Part shown: one piece after another, positions 8,938 to 26,954 of the stretch
Layout of the letters: the number at the start of each line of letters is the position of its first letter
Position numbering within the stretch: position 1 is the stretch's first letter
UHGV virus genome: UHGV-0107442
DNA: 34,578 nt
Direction: 5' to 3' (one strand)
DNA from: a virus
Notes under the pieces: model-generated
Databases searched by the model: none
What the model was told of the DNA's origin: nothing
Seen by the model: the letters and a program-made list of their open reading frames with translations, nothing else
Program-made: the position numbers and the translations under genes

Positions 8938-8982
8938 CTAGCTAATCCTGAATGTGGGTTAGTGGAAATTACAAGGAAATAT

Positions 8983-10164
8983 ATGAAACTGACTGAGCTA
9001 ACTATAAACGGTATCGGGGGGATAAAGTCCCTGTACGTAAAATTTAGGCCTGACATGAATATTATATGTGGGCCTAACGGAGTTGGAAAATCCACACTCT
9101 TGCTTGCTGCCTCCTTTCCTTTTCTTCATGGATACACTAATAGAATAAAACGCAATGTCACTTCTGAAACAGGAAGTGTTAGTCTAATAATAGAAGATAA
9201 TTCTGTTAACTTTAATTCAGTATTAGATGTTAACGTTCATTTGCCTACAGAAACAATTCACAACTTTAATAATAACGGATTTGATAAGAGGAAACTAATA
9301 AAATTTGAAATATTACGTAACTTTGATTATAAACATCTTGAGGCGTTGAATGCAGATAAATCACTATCCGATGATGCTGTTTCGCAACAGATTAATTTAG
9401 GTGTCAATTTACATGATATCAAGGATTGGTTTGCTAAGAGGGATTTGTTTGAAAAAGTAGATAATGGTTACGGTCCTAATACGATAAAAAATATACATCT
9501 TGCAAGGGAGTGTATATCAATTTTAAACCCTCAGTTTTCTTACAATCGCGTCGATCCTAAATCTTACGATATTTTTGTAAATACCCCGACCGGGGTAATA
9601 TGGTATGAATATCTGTCCTCGGGATTCAAATCATGTATGAGTCTCCTTCTCGGTATTATTAAAGAGATCGAGCTTCGTTATCCGGAGAAAGATATTTACG
9701 CCCAAGAATTTGATGGAGTGATTCTTATCGATGAAATTGAGCTTCATTTGCATCCTGAGTGGCAGGCAAGAATCACTGAAGCCCTTACGACAACATTTCC
9801 ATCAGCACAATTTATTGTCACAACTCACAGCCCACATGTAGTACAGAATGCAAAACCACATCAGATCATTGCGTTAGTACCAGATAATGATGGCACAGTG
9901 AGAGTAAAAGAACTTCCTGAAAATGGCTTGGGTTATTCTGCCTGGACAGTTGAAGAGGTTTTGTTAGATGTAATGGGGATGGAAAGCACTCTCAGTAGAA
10001 AACTACAAGAACTACTTGATAATTTCGAACGTTTTGTTGATGAAGAAAATTTCGACAAGGCGAAAGAAATTTATGATTATTTGGATATGGCATTGCATCA
10101 AAACAGTATTCTTCGTAAATCTCTTAAAATAAGCCTGATGTCAATTCGAGAGAGAGAAGAGTAA
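8983..10164 (+). CDS. ABC/SMC-like P-loop ATPase, Septu PtuA-like
   Basis: ORF 8962..10164 begins with GTG; ATG at 8983 follows AGGAA. Walker A GPNGVGKST, Walker B VILIDEIELHLHP, then TTHSP. 393 aa; the stop abuts the start of the HNH gene. About 33% GC versus about 52% in the phage backbone. Confidence 0.8.
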   Translation: MKLTELTINGIGGIKSLYVKFRPDMNIICGPNGVGKSTLLLAASFPFLHGYTNRIKRNVTSETGSVSLIIEDNSVNFNSVLDVNVHLPTETIHNFNNNGFDKRKLIKFEILRNFDYKHLEALNADKSLSDDAVSQQINLGVNLHDIKDWFAKRDLFEKVDNGYGPNTIKNIHLARECISILNPQFSYNRVDPKSYDIFVNTPTGVIWYEYLSSGFKSCMSLLLGIIKEIELRYPEKDIYAQEFDGVILIDEIELHLHPEWQARITEALTTTFPSAQFIVTTHSPHVVQNAKPHQIIALVPDNDGTVRVKELPENGLGYSAWTVEEVLLDVMGMESTLSRKLQELLDNFERFVDEENFDKAKEIYDYLDMALHQNSILRKSLKISLMSIREREE

Positions 10165-10165
10165 A

Positions 10166-10912
10166 ATGATTAAGCTTGAACGGAACTTTATTCCTGATTT
10201 TTTTACTCGTGTTGATCTTCTATCTTTAACTCAGGAGTTTAAAGATAATGGAACATCTGTTTGGCATCATCCGGAAGTAAAATCGGCATGTCTAAAATTA
10301 AGTAATGGCAAATGTGCATTTTGTGAGGTCAAGCTTGAAGAGGCTAGCACCTATAATGAAATTGAGCATTTTAAGGATAAAAAAAATTTCCCTGATGATG
10401 TTATTAGATGGGAAAATCTCCTTCCTTCATGCCGTCACTGTAATGGTTCAAAACAACGCCATAATGTTGTACTCAATCCTATAATAAATCCATGCAACGA
10501 TTTACCGTCAGAACACCTTTATATGATAGGGTATCGTATTAAAGGTAAAACTGATTTAGGTAAAACAACAGTGGATGTTTTAAACTTTAATCACAGGGAG
10601 CACAAGTTTATACCGCGTTGTAAAGCAGGGGAACTTATAGATAGCAGTATTGATGACGCAATAGAAAAACTTAATTGGTTTAATGAGAATCCAAGTACTA
10701 GACGTAAAAACATTCTTATGAATCTAGTCGAGGCAATATTAGGTGAGTGTCAGAAAACATCTCCCTTTTCTGCAGTATCAGCAACAATGCTTCATCGTTC
10801 AGTCGAATATTCTTATCTGAAAGAAACCATGCAGATGCAAGGATTATGGTCAGATTATATGCAGGAACTTCATGATGAATCTTTGAGCCTGACGTTACCG
10901 TCAATTCGCTAG
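10166..10912 (+). CDS. HNH endonuclease, Septu PtuB-like
   Basis: 248 aa with CAFCE...EIEHFKDKKNFPDDVIRWENLLPSCRHCNGSK (CxxC...H...N...CxxC HNH core). ATG 10166 is 1 nt after the ATPase stop. Confidence 0.8.
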   Translation: MIKLERNFIPDFFTRVDLLSLTQEFKDNGTSVWHHPEVKSACLKLSNGKCAFCEVKLEEASTYNEIEHFKDKKNFPDDVIRWENLLPSCRHCNGSKQRHNVVLNPIINPCNDLPSEHLYMIGYRIKGKTDLGKTTVDVLNFNHREHKFIPRCKAGELIDSSIDDAIEKLNWFNENPSTRRKNILMNLVEAILGECQKTSPFSAVSATMLHRSVEYSYLKETMQMQGLWSDYMQELHDESLSLTLPSIR

Positions 10913-11284: not shown

Positions 11285-11378
11285 AACTCATAAATCCTAG
11301 ATTATTAGTGGATTTATCTCATTGAAATGTGCACTATTCCCAGCATTGAGTTGTACCAGATGTCTTTATGGAGGGACT

Positions 11379-13145
11379 GTGGCTTTTGTAACTGATATTC
11401 GGCTTGAAGATAATGCTATTGCTGCACCTGCGACAGCACAGGTTATGGCTCAGAGGCTAGGATCTGTATTACGTAAGAGATATGAAGAATTCATCCATAA
11501 AAGAGAGTGTGCACCAGGCCAAGCAGACTATGATGTAAAAATGGCTAGCAGGGCTTTAGCTGCATTCACTATGTATCAGTTAGGATGTGTGGATGATAAG
11601 TATGCAGGGGAGTCTGTATGTGATAGTAGTGAAGATGGTGGTATAGATGGAATAGCAATCAACCATAACGAAAAAATCGTTGTTGTTGTTCAATCAAAAT
11701 TTCACCAATCGGGAAACGGCACTTGGACAAGAGCCGATTTTATGTGTTTTAAGGATGCTTGTGAGAAGCTACAAAGTGAAAGATACGAATTATTTGATTC
11801 CATATTGCAAAATAAAAGCGGGGAAATAAGTGCGGCTTTAAGTAGTTTTGAATACAAGTTCATCTTTGCGATGGCGCATACAGGTAAAAAAGGTGCTGCA
11901 GAGGAAATATTAAATGATATGCGGGAATGGCAATATCAATTAAACGCTGCAGCTTTTACACCTGAGGATGAGCCTAAAGAGAACTGGGGATTTCAGGTTC
12001 ATTTAATATCCTCTGAAGATATGATGCATTGGTTACAGAATGGCTCTCGAAATCAAATTGATCTTAACAGGGTTGAAATTGAGCGTTTTGGATTTTTGAA
12101 TGAACCATATCAAGCTTTTTACGGGGCTATTAGTGGTGATCAAGTTGCAGAATGGTGGGAAGAGCATGGTGCTCGATTATTTACAAAAAACATAAGGAAT
12201 ATGCTTGGTAAAACAGAAGTGAATGAGGAAATAAAAAAGACAGCTATAGATAATCCTGATATGTTTTGGTTTTATAATAATGGGATTACTGTACTGGTTA
12301 AGGAGGTTGTTCCTCATAGACGAAACGCAGCTCCTAATATAGAGAGAGGGATTTTTGATTTTCGTGATGTAAGTGTCATTAATGGTGCACAAACAGTCAG
12401 TAGTATTGGCGCATGTAAAGATGCGCTTGGTGAAAACATATATAGACTCAAAGTGCCAGCCAGATTCATTGTTATAGATGATGATACTGATAATTTAACT
12501 GCAAATGCGATTACAAAAGCTAACAATTTCCAAAATAGAGTATTGGGAAGAGATTTTGCGTCGCAGCAGGCAGATCAACATAGATTGGCAAGGGAGTTAG
12601 TGCTTGAAGGATATCAATATCAGTTACTAAGAACAGATGAAGATCATTCACAGACAAATACGAAAGTCATTGACTTGGATGAGGCGCTCAATGCACTCGC
12701 ATGTTTAAGTAAAAATAATACGGTTGTATCGACACTAAAATCAAATCGCGGTAGGTTTTTTGAAAATTTTGAAGGCTCTCTATATAAAACTATTTTCAAT
12801 CCAAGATTAAGTGGTTTAAAACTTATCAATACTGTTCTACATTTTAGAGTTATAGATAAGTTGATCGGTAAAACATTACTATCAGTAGATAAAACTACCC
12901 ATAGTCGCAAGCATTTAATTATTACGCATGGTAATAGATACTATGCGTCTGTGCTATTGAGCAACGTTTCTGGGATACATAATAGCTCAGAAATTCTTGT
13001 TCCAGATGAAAAAAATCTTTCAGAAGAATTAAGTGCATTAATTCAACGTGCTGAAGAGTACATTGAAGATAATTACCCGAATGCCTATCCGGCAAGATTT
13101 TTTGCAAATCCAACGAAAATACAAGAGTTATACGATAATGTTTAA
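11379..13145 (+). CDS. AIPR-family (abortive-infection phage-resistance) protein with an N-terminal PD-(D/E)xK-like nuclease motif
   Basis: ORF 11322..13145 begins with TTG. Start uncertain: GTG 11379 (GGAGGG 3 nt upstream) or ATG 11445. N-terminal DSSEDGGIDGIAI...VVVVQSKF resembles Mrr/restriction-endonuclease-like D...QxK. Central WFYNNGITVLV...VINGAQT matches the AIPR hallmark as remembered. AT-rich. Confidence 0.7.
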   Translation: MAFVTDIRLEDNAIAAPATAQVMAQRLGSVLRKRYEEFIHKRECAPGQADYDVKMASRALAAFTMYQLGCVDDKYAGESVCDSSEDGGIDGIAINHNEKIVVVVQSKFHQSGNGTWTRADFMCFKDACEKLQSERYELFDSILQNKSGEISAALSSFEYKFIFAMAHTGKKGAAEEILNDMREWQYQLNAAAFTPEDEPKENWGFQVHLISSEDMMHWLQNGSRNQIDLNRVEIERFGFLNEPYQAFYGAISGDQVAEWWEEHGARLFTKNIRNMLGKTEVNEEIKKTAIDNPDMFWFYNNGITVLVKEVVPHRRNAAPNIERGIFDFRDVSVINGAQTVSSIGACKDALGENIYRLKVPARFIVIDDDTDNLTANAITKANNFQNRVLGRDFASQQADQHRLARELVLEGYQYQLLRTDEDHSQTNTKVIDLDEALNALACLSKNNTVVSTLKSNRGRFFENFEGSLYKTIFNPRLSGLKLINTVLHFRVIDKLIGKTLLSVDKTTHSRKHLIITHGNRYYASVLLSNVSGIHNSSEILVPDEKNLSEELSALIQRAEEYIEDNYPNAYPARFFANPTKIQELYDNV

Positions 13146-23815: not shown

Positions 23816-24413
23816 TCTGCTGCCACCGGGTTCAACACCACTGGAGCGCCGACTGGCGCAAACCTGCAGCGGGATTTCTGATCTGCAGGTGCCGCTTCGT
23901 GACTTGTGGAATCCGGCAACCTGTCCGGTCAGTTTCCTGCCTTATCTCGCCTGGGCGTTCTCTGTGGATCGCTGGGACGAGGGCTGGACAGAAAGCGTCA
24001 AGCGCCAGGTGGTGAAGGATGCTTTTTATATTCATCAGCATAAAGGGACCACCAGTGCCGTGCGGCGGGTGGTGGAGCCGTTCGGATTCCTGATCCGCAT
24101 TATTGAGTGGTGGCAGACCGGAGAAACACCGGGCACGTTTCGCCTGGATATCGGCGTGCAGGACCAGGGCATCACTGAAGATACCTATCTGGAACTTGAG
24201 CGACTGATAAGCGATGCCAAACCATGTAGCCGCCACATGATCGGCATGTCCATCAATCTGCAGACCAGCGGCCCGCATTGGGTGGGAGCCGCCAGCTATC
24301 TTGGCGAAGAAATCACGATCTATCCGTATATCAACGAAACGATTATTTCCGGTGGCACCGCGCATGAAGGCGGGGCGGTCCATGTTATTGACACAATGAG
24401 AGTGAATCCATGA
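23808..24413 (+). CDS. I: Baseplate / tail protein (P2 gpI family)
   Basis: 201 aa; overlaps both neighbours. Confidence 0.85.
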   Translation: MNSLLPPGSTPLERRLAQTCSGISDLQVPLRDLWNPATCPVSFLPYLAWAFSVDRWDEGWTESVKRQVVKDAFYIHQHKGTTSAVRRVVEPFGFLIRIIEWWQTGETPGTFRLDIGVQDQGITEDTYLELERLISDAKPCSRHMIGMSINLQTSGPHWVGAASYLGEEITIYPYINETIISGGTAHEGGAVHVIDTMRVNP

Positions 24414-25801
24414 GCACAAAATTTTATACCCTGCTGACGGATATTGGCGCGGCGAAACTTGCCAGCGCCGCCGCGCTCGGTGTGCCGCTAAAAATTACCC
24501 ATATGGCGGTGGGCGATGGCGGTGGAGTATTGCCAACGCCGGACGCAAAGCAGACGGCACTGGTAAATGAGAAACGCCGGGCTGCGCTGAATATGCTTTA
24601 TATCGACCCGCAGAACAGCAGCCAGATTATTGCCGAACAGGTGATCCCTGAAAACGAGGGCGGTTGGTGGATACGTGAAGTGGGCTTGTTTGATGAGTCC
24701 GGGGCATTGATTGCCGTGGGCAACTGCCCGGAAAGCTATAAGCCGCAACTGGCTGAAGGTAGCGGGCGCACTCAGACCGTGCGCATGGTGCTGATTACCA
24801 GCAGCACGGACAATATCACCCTGAAAATCGACCCTGCTGTAGTGCTGGCAACCCGCAAGTATGTGGATGACAAGGCACTGGAGCTGAAGGTGTACGCGGA
24901 TGATCAGATGGCAAAACATCTTGCCGCACCGGACCCGCATTCACAGTACGCGCCAAAAGCCAGCCCGACATTTACCGGAACCCCCAAAGCGCCAACGCCA
25001 GCGGCGGGGAATAATACCACGCAGGTTGCGACCACTGCGTTTGTACAGGCGGCACTGACGGCCCTTATTAATGGTGCGCCAGCCACGCTGGACACGCTGA
25101 AAGAAATAGCCGCAGCCATTAACAATGATCCGAATTTCAGTACCACCATTAACAATGCGCTGGCACTAAAAGCACCGTTGTCGAGTCCGGCACTCACCGG
25201 AACGCCAACAGCCCCCACGGCGGCGCAGTCGATCAACAATACACAGATTGCCACTACGGCTTTTGTGAAATCGGCGATTGCAGGAATGGTGGGTTCTGCA
25301 CCTGCTGCACTGGATACACTGAACGAACTGGCGGCGGCACTGGGGAATGATCCGAACTTTGCCACGACAATGCTTAATGCGCTGGCAGGTAAACAACCGC
25401 TGGACAATACGCTTACCAATTTGAGTGGAAAGGATGTAGCTGGTCTTCTCACATACCTTGGTTTGGGAGAAGCCAGATATGTCATTCAGCGAGGAGCTAA
25501 TGTCAATGGTGCATGGATACGCTGGTCAGATGGTGCAATAGAAGTATTTGGAACTGGTGGTTCCAATGATAATGGGCTGGCTAAAGTCGTTTATCCAATT
25601 GCACTACCTAAGCTTTCACGTTTTATCAGCATAGCGGAAAGAATAAGAACAGATTACGAGGCCACACCTAATAACGTTCACGTTTCAATGATCGTGGATG
25701 ACCAGGTCAGTAATACAGGTTTTTATGTCCGCTGCCAGATGTACGACGGAAGACCATCAACAAGTGCTTTTTCCTGGAGAGTTTATTGTGCGCCTGTTTA
25801 A
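24410..25801 (+). CDS. H: Tail fibre protein (P2 gpH-like constant N-terminal region plus variable C-terminus in the current orientation)
   Basis: 463 aa. Two tandem copies of a roughly 70-aa repeat (...TGTPKAPTPAAGNNTTQVATTAFVQAAL...DTLKEIAAAINNDPNF... and ...TGTPTAPTAAQSINNTQIATTAFVKSAI...DTLNELAAALGNDPNF...). The inversion crossover site lies inside the gene at 25458..25478 (encodes GLGEAR). Confidence 0.85.
   Translation: MSTKFYTLLTDIGAAKLASAAALGVPLKITHMAVGDGGGVLPTPDAKQTALVNEKRRAALNMLYIDPQNSSQIIAEQVIPENEGGWWIREVGLFDESGALIAVGNCPESYKPQLAEGSGRTQTVRMVLITSSTDNITLKIDPAVVLATRKYVDDKALELKVYADDQMAKHLAAPDPHSQYAPKASPTFTGTPKAPTPAAGNNTTQVATTAFVQAALTALINGAPATLDTLKEIAAAINNDPNFSTTINNALALKAPLSSPALTGTPTAPTAAQSINNTQIATTAFVKSAIAGMVGSAPAALDTLNELAAALGNDPNFATTMLNALAGKQPLDNTLTNLSGKDVAGLLTYLGLGEARYVIQRGANVNGAWIRWSDGAIEVFGTGGSNDNGLAKVVYPIALPKLSRFISIAERIRTDYEATPNNVHVSMIVDDQVSNTGFYVRCQMYDGRPSTSAFSWRVYCAPV
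25458..25478 (+). repeat. Left inversion crossover site, inside H
   Basis: Identical to the reverse complement of 26894..26914. Confidence 0.7.
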
Positions 25802-25985
25802 TCCTGTTACTTTGACTGAAGTAATCCCCGGTCTTCATGACGTGACCGGGGCTGTGGAATTACCAGAAGATAACTGGTTTTTTACTGCATCTGAAATCCC
25901 TGAAGGAATGGAAATATCTGTTAACGAGAAGGGCGAACCCATTCTGATTGAGATTAAACCATATCAGGTGGAACTGGCCAGATAA
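25788..25985 (+). CDS. Small ORF after the active fibre C-terminus; putative tail-fibre assembly/chaperone protein (65 aa)
   Basis: GTG 25788 follows GGAGA at 7-nt spacing and overlaps the H stop. Function assigned by position (equivalent to U of Mu-type invertible segments); no motif recognised. Confidence 0.4.
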   Translation: MRLFNPVTLTEVIPGLHDVTGAVELPEDNWFFTASEIPEGMEISVNEKGEPILIEIKPYQVELAR

Positions 25986-26220
25986 CCCCCGGCGCGGTGC
26001 TGGTATCTGCTTCCATCACCGCGTCGATATTACCAACATCATATTCAGTCATTTCCGGTTCCGGTGGTGCTATAAACTCTCCGTCAGAATAGAACCAACC
26101 GACGCCTGCATCTATATGATCAATATTTATAATTTCGCAGTTAGAGAATAAATCACCCTCTCCATCCCAGATAATAATATTTTTCACCACGCCATGTTCA
26201 ATCAGAGCAAAATTACTCAT
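25954..26220 (-). CDS. Small ORF of the alternative cassette; putative tail-fibre assembly/chaperone protein (88 aa)
   Basis: ATG at 26220 (-) overlaps the stop of the alternative fibre C-terminus (ATGA). Convergent with the ORF at 25788..25985, as expected for an invertible segment. Confidence 0.5.
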   Translation of the reverse strand: MSNFALIEHGVVKNIIIWDGEGDLFSNCEIINIDHIDAGVGWFYSDGEFIAPPEPEMTEYDVGNIDAVMEADTSTAPGVIWPVPPDMV

Positions 26221-26954
26221 CAGGCATACTCCTCAACAATAACTATTCCCGGGGCACCGTCACCTCCCGATTGAGCCTCACTTCCAGCAGGTGCGCAGGC
26301 TCCGCCTCCGCCAGAACCAAAGCCCTCAGCTTTACCACCACCACGTCCGCTGAATGATGAAGAACTTGCACCACCTATACCGCCTGAACCTAATGGTGTA
26401 TCCCCCCCGTTACCCCCTGCTACAGCTTTAACAGAGATAACCATTGCTCCTGGTGTTTTTGCACTACAGCGAAATGCTCTTAGTACAGTACCGGACGATG
26501 TCGGACTGGCACCCCGTGAAATACCCTGAATATATGATGTGTTTGCAGATGCTCCCCCCGCGCCACCGCCTGTACCACCAGGTGCAGTTATCATGGAACC
26601 GAAATAAGTTGTGCCACCTTCACTACCTGAATTTCTTCCGGCTCCCCCCCCTTTACCTGCAGCACCGATAATAACGTTGACTTCGAAATCATTATCAACC
26701 TCGAAAAATGCTTCAATAAATGCGCCGCTCAATCCAGCTCCGGCTGTTGCCTGCTGATTTTCTGTTGTTTCAGGAACCCCACCGCCGCCGCCACCGCCAC
26801 CAGAGGCAATGACCCTTATCTTTTTTGTCCCTGGTGTTGGGATATATTTTCCAGAGCTTTTAAAAATATTCGTGTTTAACAAACGACCAGAGAATCTGGC
26901 TTCTCCCAAACCAACGTTTAAGAAAATGCAGAGGTAACAGCTAACTGGCATCAT
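26220..26954 (-). CDS. Alternative, glycine-rich tail-fibre C-terminal cassette (silent in this orientation)
   Basis: The minus-strand ORF encodes VGLGEARF at the crossover site (26894..26914), in frame with the same GLGEAR encoded in H. Inversion would fuse about 230 aa of Gly-rich sequence (runs such as GGGGGGGG, GGTGGGAGG) to the H constant part. The first 14 codons before the crossover are probably not part of any real protein. Confidence 0.65.
   Translation of the reverse strand: MMPVSCYLCIFLNVGLGEARFSGRLLNTNIFKSSGKYIPTPGTKKIRVIASGGGGGGGGVPETTENQQATAGAGLSGAFIEAFFEVDNDFEVNVIIGAAGKGGGAGRNSGSEGGTTYFGSMITAPGGTGGGAGGASANTSYIQGISRGASPTSSGTVLRAFRCSAKTPGAMVISVKAVAGGNGGDTPLGSGGIGGASSSSFSGRGGGKAEGFGSGGGGACAPAGSEAQSGGDGAPGIVIVEEYA
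26901..26926. repeat. Right inversion crossover site (gix/hix/cix-like)
   Basis: TTCTCCCAAACC-AA-CGTTTAAGAAAA: two 12-bp half-sites around a 2-bp core, resembling remembered hix/gix sites (for example TTCTTGAAAACC-AA-GGTTTTTGATAA). Confidence 0.6.

Follow-up and report, generated by a model that had tools for sequence, protein, structure and literature searches.

Invertible segments that exchange the ends of tail fibres are best known as the Mu G, P1 C and e14 P segments (Gin/Cin/Pin/Hin, Din), in which a serine invertase gene adjoins the segment, inverted 26-bp sites lie in the open reading frame (ORF) of the fibre, and two alternative C-termini are each followed by their own tail-fibre assembly (Tfa) gene. 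For this invertase family the crossover site is classically pictured as a universal joint. To our knowledge, classical P2 possesses no invertible segment. Inversion of the e14 P segment was reported to produce StfE2, a receptor-masking defence protein (PMC12529663). In the present study a segment of this kind was analysed in the virus genome UHGV-0107442, the whole 34,578-nucleotide stretch of which is referred to as the window, with emphasis on a silent, extremely glycine-rich (Gly-rich) ORF on the minus strand downstream of the tail-fibre gene H (Table 1).

A glycine-rich fibre domain was first solved in the cyanophage Pam3, in its tail fibre gp24 together with the chaperone gp25 (PDB 7YPX / 7YFW; PMC9608196). 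The fold of gp24 is a tumour necrosis factor (TNF)-like sandwich, the strands of which continue into six loops with two glycine-rich motifs each, and these motifs stack as a four-layer lattice with ~5 Å spacing; receptor recognition was assigned to this domain, and the authors proposed that the variable distal loop ends bind the receptor (PMC9608196). Host-adaptation mutations in the fibre of a Klebsiella phage were located in its glycine-rich domain (PMC12671077), and a survey groups the domains of Pam3, Bxb1, S16 gp38 and ALK as polyproline-II/polyglycine-II helix bundles (PMC13243192).

Taken together, it is very likely that the Gly-rich ORF of the window is a stored, promoter-less alternative receptor-binding tip for the fibre of a P2-like prophage, with the fold of Pam3 gp24 and Pfam family PF21722. 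An earlier note on this DNA, made from the letters alone, had regarded it as a silent alternative tip with a different receptor-binding fold, a reading which is supported here and in which the fold can now be named.

Minus-strand translation of 26220-26912 gives 230 amino acids (aa) and a stop, from GLGEARFSGRLLNT... to ...GAPGIVIVEEYA. Glycine accounts for 61 of the 230 residues (26.5%), alanine for 12.2% and serine for 10.9%, and glycine runs occur as GGGGGGGG at residues 38-45, GGTGGGAGG at 112-120 and GGGGACAPAG at 201-210. The composition, the runs and the end GIVIVEEYA quoted in the earlier note are all present in the translation, its coordinates are exact, and its wording 'dominated by Gly/Ser/Ala' is borne out to the extent that these three residues make up about half of the tip (49.6%). 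The strong difference from the active C-terminus that it had pointed out was confirmed as well, as glycine contributes only 8.3% to the active tip and 7.3% to the whole of H, and the variable tails of 224 aa and 107 aa have no significant similarity (best BLASTP E = 0.61). Slippage in the (Gly)8 run was considered and rejected, for exactly eight glycines are present in 24 of 24 close homologues, so that its length never varies, and the mixed GGT/GGC/GGG codons form no homopolymer. The right crossover half-site has its inner edge at position 26912, and at the other end of the ORF the stop codon (26220-26222) shares one base with the ATG of the next gene (TGATG). The reading frame is real: its product exceeds the Pfam gathering score, and 241 homologues at E<=0.001 are present in the database.

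The segment is flanked by a 33-nt inverted repeat (25446-25478 / 26894-26926), each arm of which holds a 26-bp site composed of two 12-bp dyad half-sites around a 2-bp core (TT/AA). One crossover site is situated inside the fibre ORF H, the invertase gene begins 50 bp past the right site, and the inner half-site is identical in 15 of 16 bases to the inverted repeat TTGGTTTGGGAGAAGG of the e14 P segment (PMC12529663). Residues 1-349 of H are constant, and residues 350-356 (LGLGEAR), encoded by the repeat, are also found in both forms. Flipping 25458-26914 (1,457 bp) in silico from core to core resulted in an in-frame protein of 580 aa (H'), in which residues 1-356 are unchanged, ending in LGLGEAR, and are followed by 224 Gly-rich residues. 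This flipped form is carried by Escherichia coli UC4224, where WP_198460249.1, a 580-aa 'phage tail protein', is 97% identical to the in-silico H'; UC4315, a laboratory derivative recorded as a mutant of UC4224, has the same orientation as the window, and UC4316 is flipped. Among 5,426 complete E. coli genomes the junction of H with the Gly-rich tip was detected in 16 and that of the Gly-rich tip with the invertase in 17, two numbers which are not strictly comparable, as the junction queries carry different constant halves. Both states of the switch are clearly common in nature.

Since the flipped form is in frame and both orientations exist in nature, the segment is an active switch of the Mu G, P1 C and e14 P type, and it combines what characterizes the Din family, namely an adjoining small serine invertase, inverted 26-bp sites, a frame-keeping inversion and the occurrence of both orientations. 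Unlike those segments, it belongs to a P2-like backbone, one of its tips is a PF21722 Gly-rich domain, and its Tfa genes are both shortened, one to 65 and the other to 88 aa, with overlapping 3' ends. The promoter scan detected nothing upstream of the silent Gly-rich ORF, with a number of sites at chance level, and therefore the Gly-rich tip is most probably not expressed in the orientation of the window. As a separate observation, fused and silent junctions were both found in the genome of E. coli 214-4 (NZ_CP025840.1, 5123176-5123576 and 18085-18978), with ~33 kb between them when counted across the record start, which presumably reflects two related prophages in opposite switch states.

With respect to its fold, the tip matches PF21722 (Gly_rich_2) over profile positions 9-224 of 226 with a score of 35.2 bits (cut-off 24.3; E=1.7e-8), and most of its database homologues carry the same domain. 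An AlphaFold2 monomer model based on 59 homologues reached a mean predicted local distance difference test (pLDDT) score of 87.4 and a predicted template modelling (pTM) score of 0.85; it displays ten beta-strands, and the glycine stretches are neither strand nor helix. The tip is accordingly predicted to be a folded domain. As a single sequence it found no match among PDB sequences; the profile of the 59-member family was needed, and this profile matched Pam3 gp24 (7ypx_A, chain residues 70-284) at E=3.3e-11, including the closing GxxGIxIVxxY strand, which reads GIVIVEEY in the tip and GIIIVQYF in Pam3 gp24. The relationship between the tip and Pam3 gp24 is one of homology and goes beyond mere likeness. 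The predicted fold is a TNF-like beta-sandwich whose loops build a glycine-rich domain. In the tip sequence about ten Gly-rich motifs are recognizable, and 14 glycines are invariant across the family. The least conserved columns are those of residues 121-165, which also show the lowest model confidence (pLDDT 66-72), and by analogy with the solved relatives residues ~121-165 may form the distal, receptor-contacting end. From the homologues we likewise infer a trimeric state, polyglycine-II geometry and receptor contact for the tip.

Homologous Gly-rich fibre tips, for which a search had been proposed in the earlier note, were found in abundance. Among the PHROGs, the tail-fibre families 6202, 863 and 454 are matched by the tip in their C-terminal parts (phrog_6202 at E=9.6e-55), and 254 viral models in BFVD match at E<=0.001, many of them named tail fibre, including fibres of Achromobacter, Xanthomonas, Edwardsiella and Escherichia phages, cyanophages, mycobacteriophages and giant viruses; to these the profile match with Pam3 gp24 is to be added. 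Clustered at 50%, the family comprises 29,770 representatives at E<=0.001, the weak end of which may be inflated by compositional bias, and 3,240 at E<=1e-30. With tblastn the tip matched none of 50,697 phage records, which is probably due to the low-complexity filter and not readable as absence, as phage relatives are plentiful in the PHROG, IMG/VR and BFVD searches.

RefSeq already labels some copies 'glycine-rich domain-containing protein', and NCBIfam holds no model for the Gly-rich tip, for either of the two small ORFs or for H. Stand-alone PF21722 proteins of 308-320 aa occur in E. coli and relatives (P0039, P0041, P0067, P0076 and many more) and are called 'carbohydrate kinase' at NCBI. 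This name, attached to many relatives of 308 aa, was rejected, given that no kinase was encountered among the family or fold matches. Literature searches for PF21722, Gly_rich_2 and 'glycine-rich domain-containing protein' retrieved only plant papers, and no paper was found on a Gly-rich tip of the PF21722 type in a P2-like invertible segment.

Compared with the solved systems, the tip conforms to the PF21722 / Pam3 gp24 type. However, Pam3 gp24 is a stand-alone fibre of 280 aa with an alpha-helical N-terminal shaft and a cyanobacterial host, whereas the present domain forms the exchangeable end of a P2-type fibre of 580 aa and the host is an enterobacterium; compared with gp25, the 88-aa chaperone is devoid of the helical trimerisation core. 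In mycobacteriophage Bxb1, gp33 (the 'tail wing brush') and a tail-spike subdomain of gp29 (PDB 9D93), with only 18-23% identity, decorate the tail tip of a siphovirus, in contrast to the tip studied here, which is the end of a contractile-tail fibre. The glycine-rich domain of metazoan ALK/LTK (PDB 7LIR, 7LS0, 7NX3, 7LRZ) binds a cytokine and is part of an animal receptor kinase; no match of the tip to the Pfam family of ALK was obtained at E<=0.1, and membership in ALK/LTK is not indicated by sequence. In its way of working the tip might nevertheless be likened to gp38 and ALK, as a rigid polyglycine lattice presenting variable loops.

Because the stop of the tip and the ATG of the 88-aa ORF share one base, the two genes may be translationally coupled. 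In 80 IMG/VR loci with relatives of the tip, the gene directly downstream is often a relative of the 88-aa ORF, which is kept even where the tips are only 31-50% identical. Alignment of these downstream ORFs revealed a common N-terminal domain of ~55 aa (YAlI.nG.V.N...WDG...GiGW.Y..G.F..PP), followed in the versions of 132-146 aa by a Caudo_TAP domain (PF02413, E down to 4e-30), which the relatives of 132-138 aa match at E=3e-14 to 4e-30. No Pfam match was obtained for the 88-aa ORF itself, and the conserved helical C-terminal domain of Caudo_TAP was not recovered in it: an in-frame gap of ~45 aa removes the helical core, while the DTSTAPxVIWP end is kept (...DTSTAPGVIWPVPP). A single-sequence search with the 88-aa ORF yielded only near-identical proteins; the profile of the chaperone family, by contrast, matched Mu Tfa (5yvq_B) at E=3.6e-14; its match to the N-terminus of gp25, the chaperone of Pam3 (7ypx_a), is weak (E=0.032), yet the two are in register. 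As in Pam3, a cognate chaperone gene with a small beta-sandwich N-domain is found directly downstream of the tip. Although the scores are modest, the 88-aa ORF is read as the putative chaperone of the Gly-rich tip.

For the active tip, the 65-aa ORF matches positions 1-65 of 145 in phrog_5400 (E=1.9e-22) and, weakly, the tail-fibre assembly family phrog_188, and is probably an N-domain-only chaperone. The two ORFs converge with a tail-to-tail overlap of 32 bp (25954-25985), and both are shortened from longer families.

The proposed mechanism would then be the following. The serine invertase would recombine the two inverted 26-bp sites, one in H and one just before its own gene, and flip the 1,457 bp between them, whereby the last 107 residues of H and a small chaperone gene would be swapped for the 224-residue Gly-rich domain and the 88-aa chaperone gene, and a 580-aa fibre with a Gly-rich end would be made. 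In this fibre about ten beta-strands would build the TNF-like sandwich, with Gly-rich loops of the polyglycine-II type, which form a hydrogen-bonded lattice in the solved relatives, and the N-terminal domain of the 88-aa Tfa would hold the tip during folding, presumably as Pam3 gp25 does. The outcome would be a phage population with two host specificities.

The same tip is not confined to this fibre. In E. coli proteins, copies with 97-99% identity follow at least seven different N-terminal constant regions that end in ...LGLGEAR (among the proteins with other constant regions are P0004, P0007, P0009, P0013, P0017 and P0019), and one of these fusions belongs to a Mu-like tail module with Phage_Mu_Gp48 and a baseplate protein of the Mu GpP type (L005 3710-4693, IMG/VR UViG_2529292853_000008). 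The LGLGEA-coding crossover site thus serves as a universal joint between fibre backbones and tip, and the invertible cassette is shared across phage lineages. One E. coli protein of 294 aa (P0006) is chimeric: after the leader of the silent cassette come ~45 residues from the 'active' tip, LGLGEAR for a second time and then the Gly-rich tip. Such a protein points to loci in which there are more than two crossover sites, or to an aberrant product of inversion.

Several observations would suit a different view, in which the Gly-rich ORF is a decaying, non-functional remnant or a low-complexity spacer that is carried along and never becomes a working tip. The exact cassette is rare (35 of 5,426 complete E. 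coli genomes), none of the INPHARED phage records carries it at the megablast level, seven of the 35 E. coli copies contain indels and are annotated as frameshifted or partial, and the 88-aa chaperone is internally deleted. The helical core is thought to drive oligomerisation in TfaMu, and without such a core the 88-aa Tfa may not be competent as a chaperone. Together with those copies that have a single indel, for which real inactivation or a slipped-strand frameshift in a G8 tract is possible, the disrupted copies and the shortened chaperone weigh against a functional alternative tip. Disruption in related prophages, which the earlier note had considered damaging to its own reading, is present in seven of the 35 copies, yet its pattern resembles that of sequencing errors: because the indels are placed mainly in the coding-strand homopolymers G8 (26644-26651), G6 (26554-26559) and G7 (26402-26408), and often occur several per genome or scattered through noisy sequence, they are probably errors of long-read assembly. 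The 88-aa Tfa is also less odd than the loss of the core implies, because N-domain-only ORFs of 61-84 aa follow the tips in many other related loci. A mere remnant or spacer is regarded as very improbable.

The position of the tip at the extreme C-terminus of a trimeric fibre could also suit an intramolecular chaperone or auto-cleaved assembly domain with no function as a receptor-binding surface, and domains of this sort stand at the C-termini of other fibres and tailspikes (endosialidase-type S74 domains). An 'intramolecular-chaperone-like tip' had been suggested in the earlier note, a suggestion that was not upheld, because no such domain was recognized by sequence or fold, a separate chaperone gene is present, and the Pam3 homologue has been described as the receptor-recognition part; an assembly domain is hence scarcely credible. 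A further alternative is an adhesin module of the T-even gp38 type (S16/T2 family), in which glycine-rich motifs form a polyglycine-II lattice showing variable, indeed hypervariable, receptor-binding loops (PMC9608196, PMC13243192); a separate adhesin with attachment domain, beta-helix and polyglycine sandwich was not recognized in the tip, and this assignment is highly unlikely. A product that masks the receptor in the lysogen as a defence protein, like StfE2 of e14, instead of or besides its role in the virion, would be in line with a crossover site that is the same as in the e14 P segment, with an ATG-initiated ORF of 244 aa that the silent orientation still possesses (the open frame extends over 26220-26954, with the ATG at 26952-26954 on the minus strand) and that is a separate coding sequence in the RefSeq annotation, and with the Septu and AIPR defence genes also carried by the prophage. 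However, the prophage looks complete, the fibre gene lies within the late tail operon, nothing promoter-like was detected ahead of the silent ORF, and StfE2 has a gp53-like domain and no Gly-rich one (PMC12529663), which leaves such a role extremely unlikely. By analogy with e14 it might further be imagined that tip and mini-chaperone are more than a part of the virion, in that inversion would also switch on a receptor-masking protein blocking the adsorption of other phages, for which either the fused H' or the ATG-initiated ORF of 244 aa would be the candidate; this, too, is very unlikely. A milder and more likely novelty would be that a tip of this fold needs only the ~55-aa N-domain of Tfa.

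The Gly-rich tip is embedded in an almost complete P2-like prophage, which encodes a repressor of the CI type and shows sheath- and tube-sized ORFs 3' of the invertase gene; the corresponding genes of near-identical E. coli loci are annotated as baseplate J, tail protein I, tail sheath and tail tube. The constant part of H is 96-97% identical to H of related prophages in either orientation. The active tip matches the C-termini of PHROG 2557 and 2712, and no relative of it was found among PDB sequences. In related phages and genomes the invertase is annotated as 'DNA invertase' or 'recombinase family protein'. Between the replication and portal genes the prophage carries defence cargo (8962-10164, 10166-10912, 11322-13145), consisting of a Septu pair (PADLOC; PtuA E=1e-151, PtuB E=2e-95) and an AIPR-domain protein (Pfam AIPR E=7e-35; PADLOC AbiU E=7e-25).

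Table 1: Tail-fibre gene H, its two alternative ends and the invertase in the window, in order of position.
Feature	Position	Strand	Basis or remark
Constant part of tail-fibre gene H, common to both fibre versions	24410..25457	+	Pfam Phage_tail_fib N-terminal domain, E=2.9e-65
Whole gene H, current form, 463 aa	24410-25801	+	Phage_tail_fib
Left 26-bp crossover site, TTCTCACATACC-TT-GGTTTGGGAGAA	25446..25471		core dinucleotide 25458-25459
Active variable tip of H, currently expressed form, 107 aa	25478..25801	+	in frame with H
65-aa ORF after the active tip	25788..25985	+	annotated WP_001236016.1 in related genomes; phrog_5400 match
88-aa Tfa chaperone gene of the Gly-rich tip (putative)	25954..26220	-	N-domain conserved, internal deletion
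Silent Gly-rich alternative tip, 230 aa including the shared GLGEAR, 224 aa tip-specific	26220..26912	-	PF21722
Right 26-bp crossover site, TTCTCCCAAACC-AA-CGTTTAAGAAAA	26901..26926		core dinucleotide 26913-26914
Serine DNA invertase, 190 aa	26976..27548	+	Pfam Resolvase E=1.2e-52, HTH_7 E=1.5e-15

The Gly-rich tip belongs to a known and very widespread fold, and its locus is a well-explained, fairly ordinary host-range switch, by which the current understanding is not overturned and which is of moderate practical interest for host-range engineering. The folds of the two tips seem to be unrelated, so that different receptors are very probably used by the two subpopulations of the phage. For P2-like prophages of E. 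coli the locus offers a handle on host-range switching that is both concrete and cheap. The Gly-rich cassette and its 88-aa chaperone are a compact, naturally portable module of ~0.95 kb, found on several fibre backbones and useful for the host-range engineering of antibacterials based on P2 or tailocins. If the ~55-aa N-domain suffices, tip and mini-Tfa would be a self-contained host-range cassette, which appears to move among P2-like, Mu-like and at least five other fibre backbones via the LGLGEA-coding crossover site. Beyond this locus, the analysis corrects the names 'carbohydrate kinase' and 'hypothetical protein' for a family of ~30,000 cluster representatives, and the small group of lattice domains of polyglycine helices that are related to the receptor domain of ALK gains enterobacterial members.
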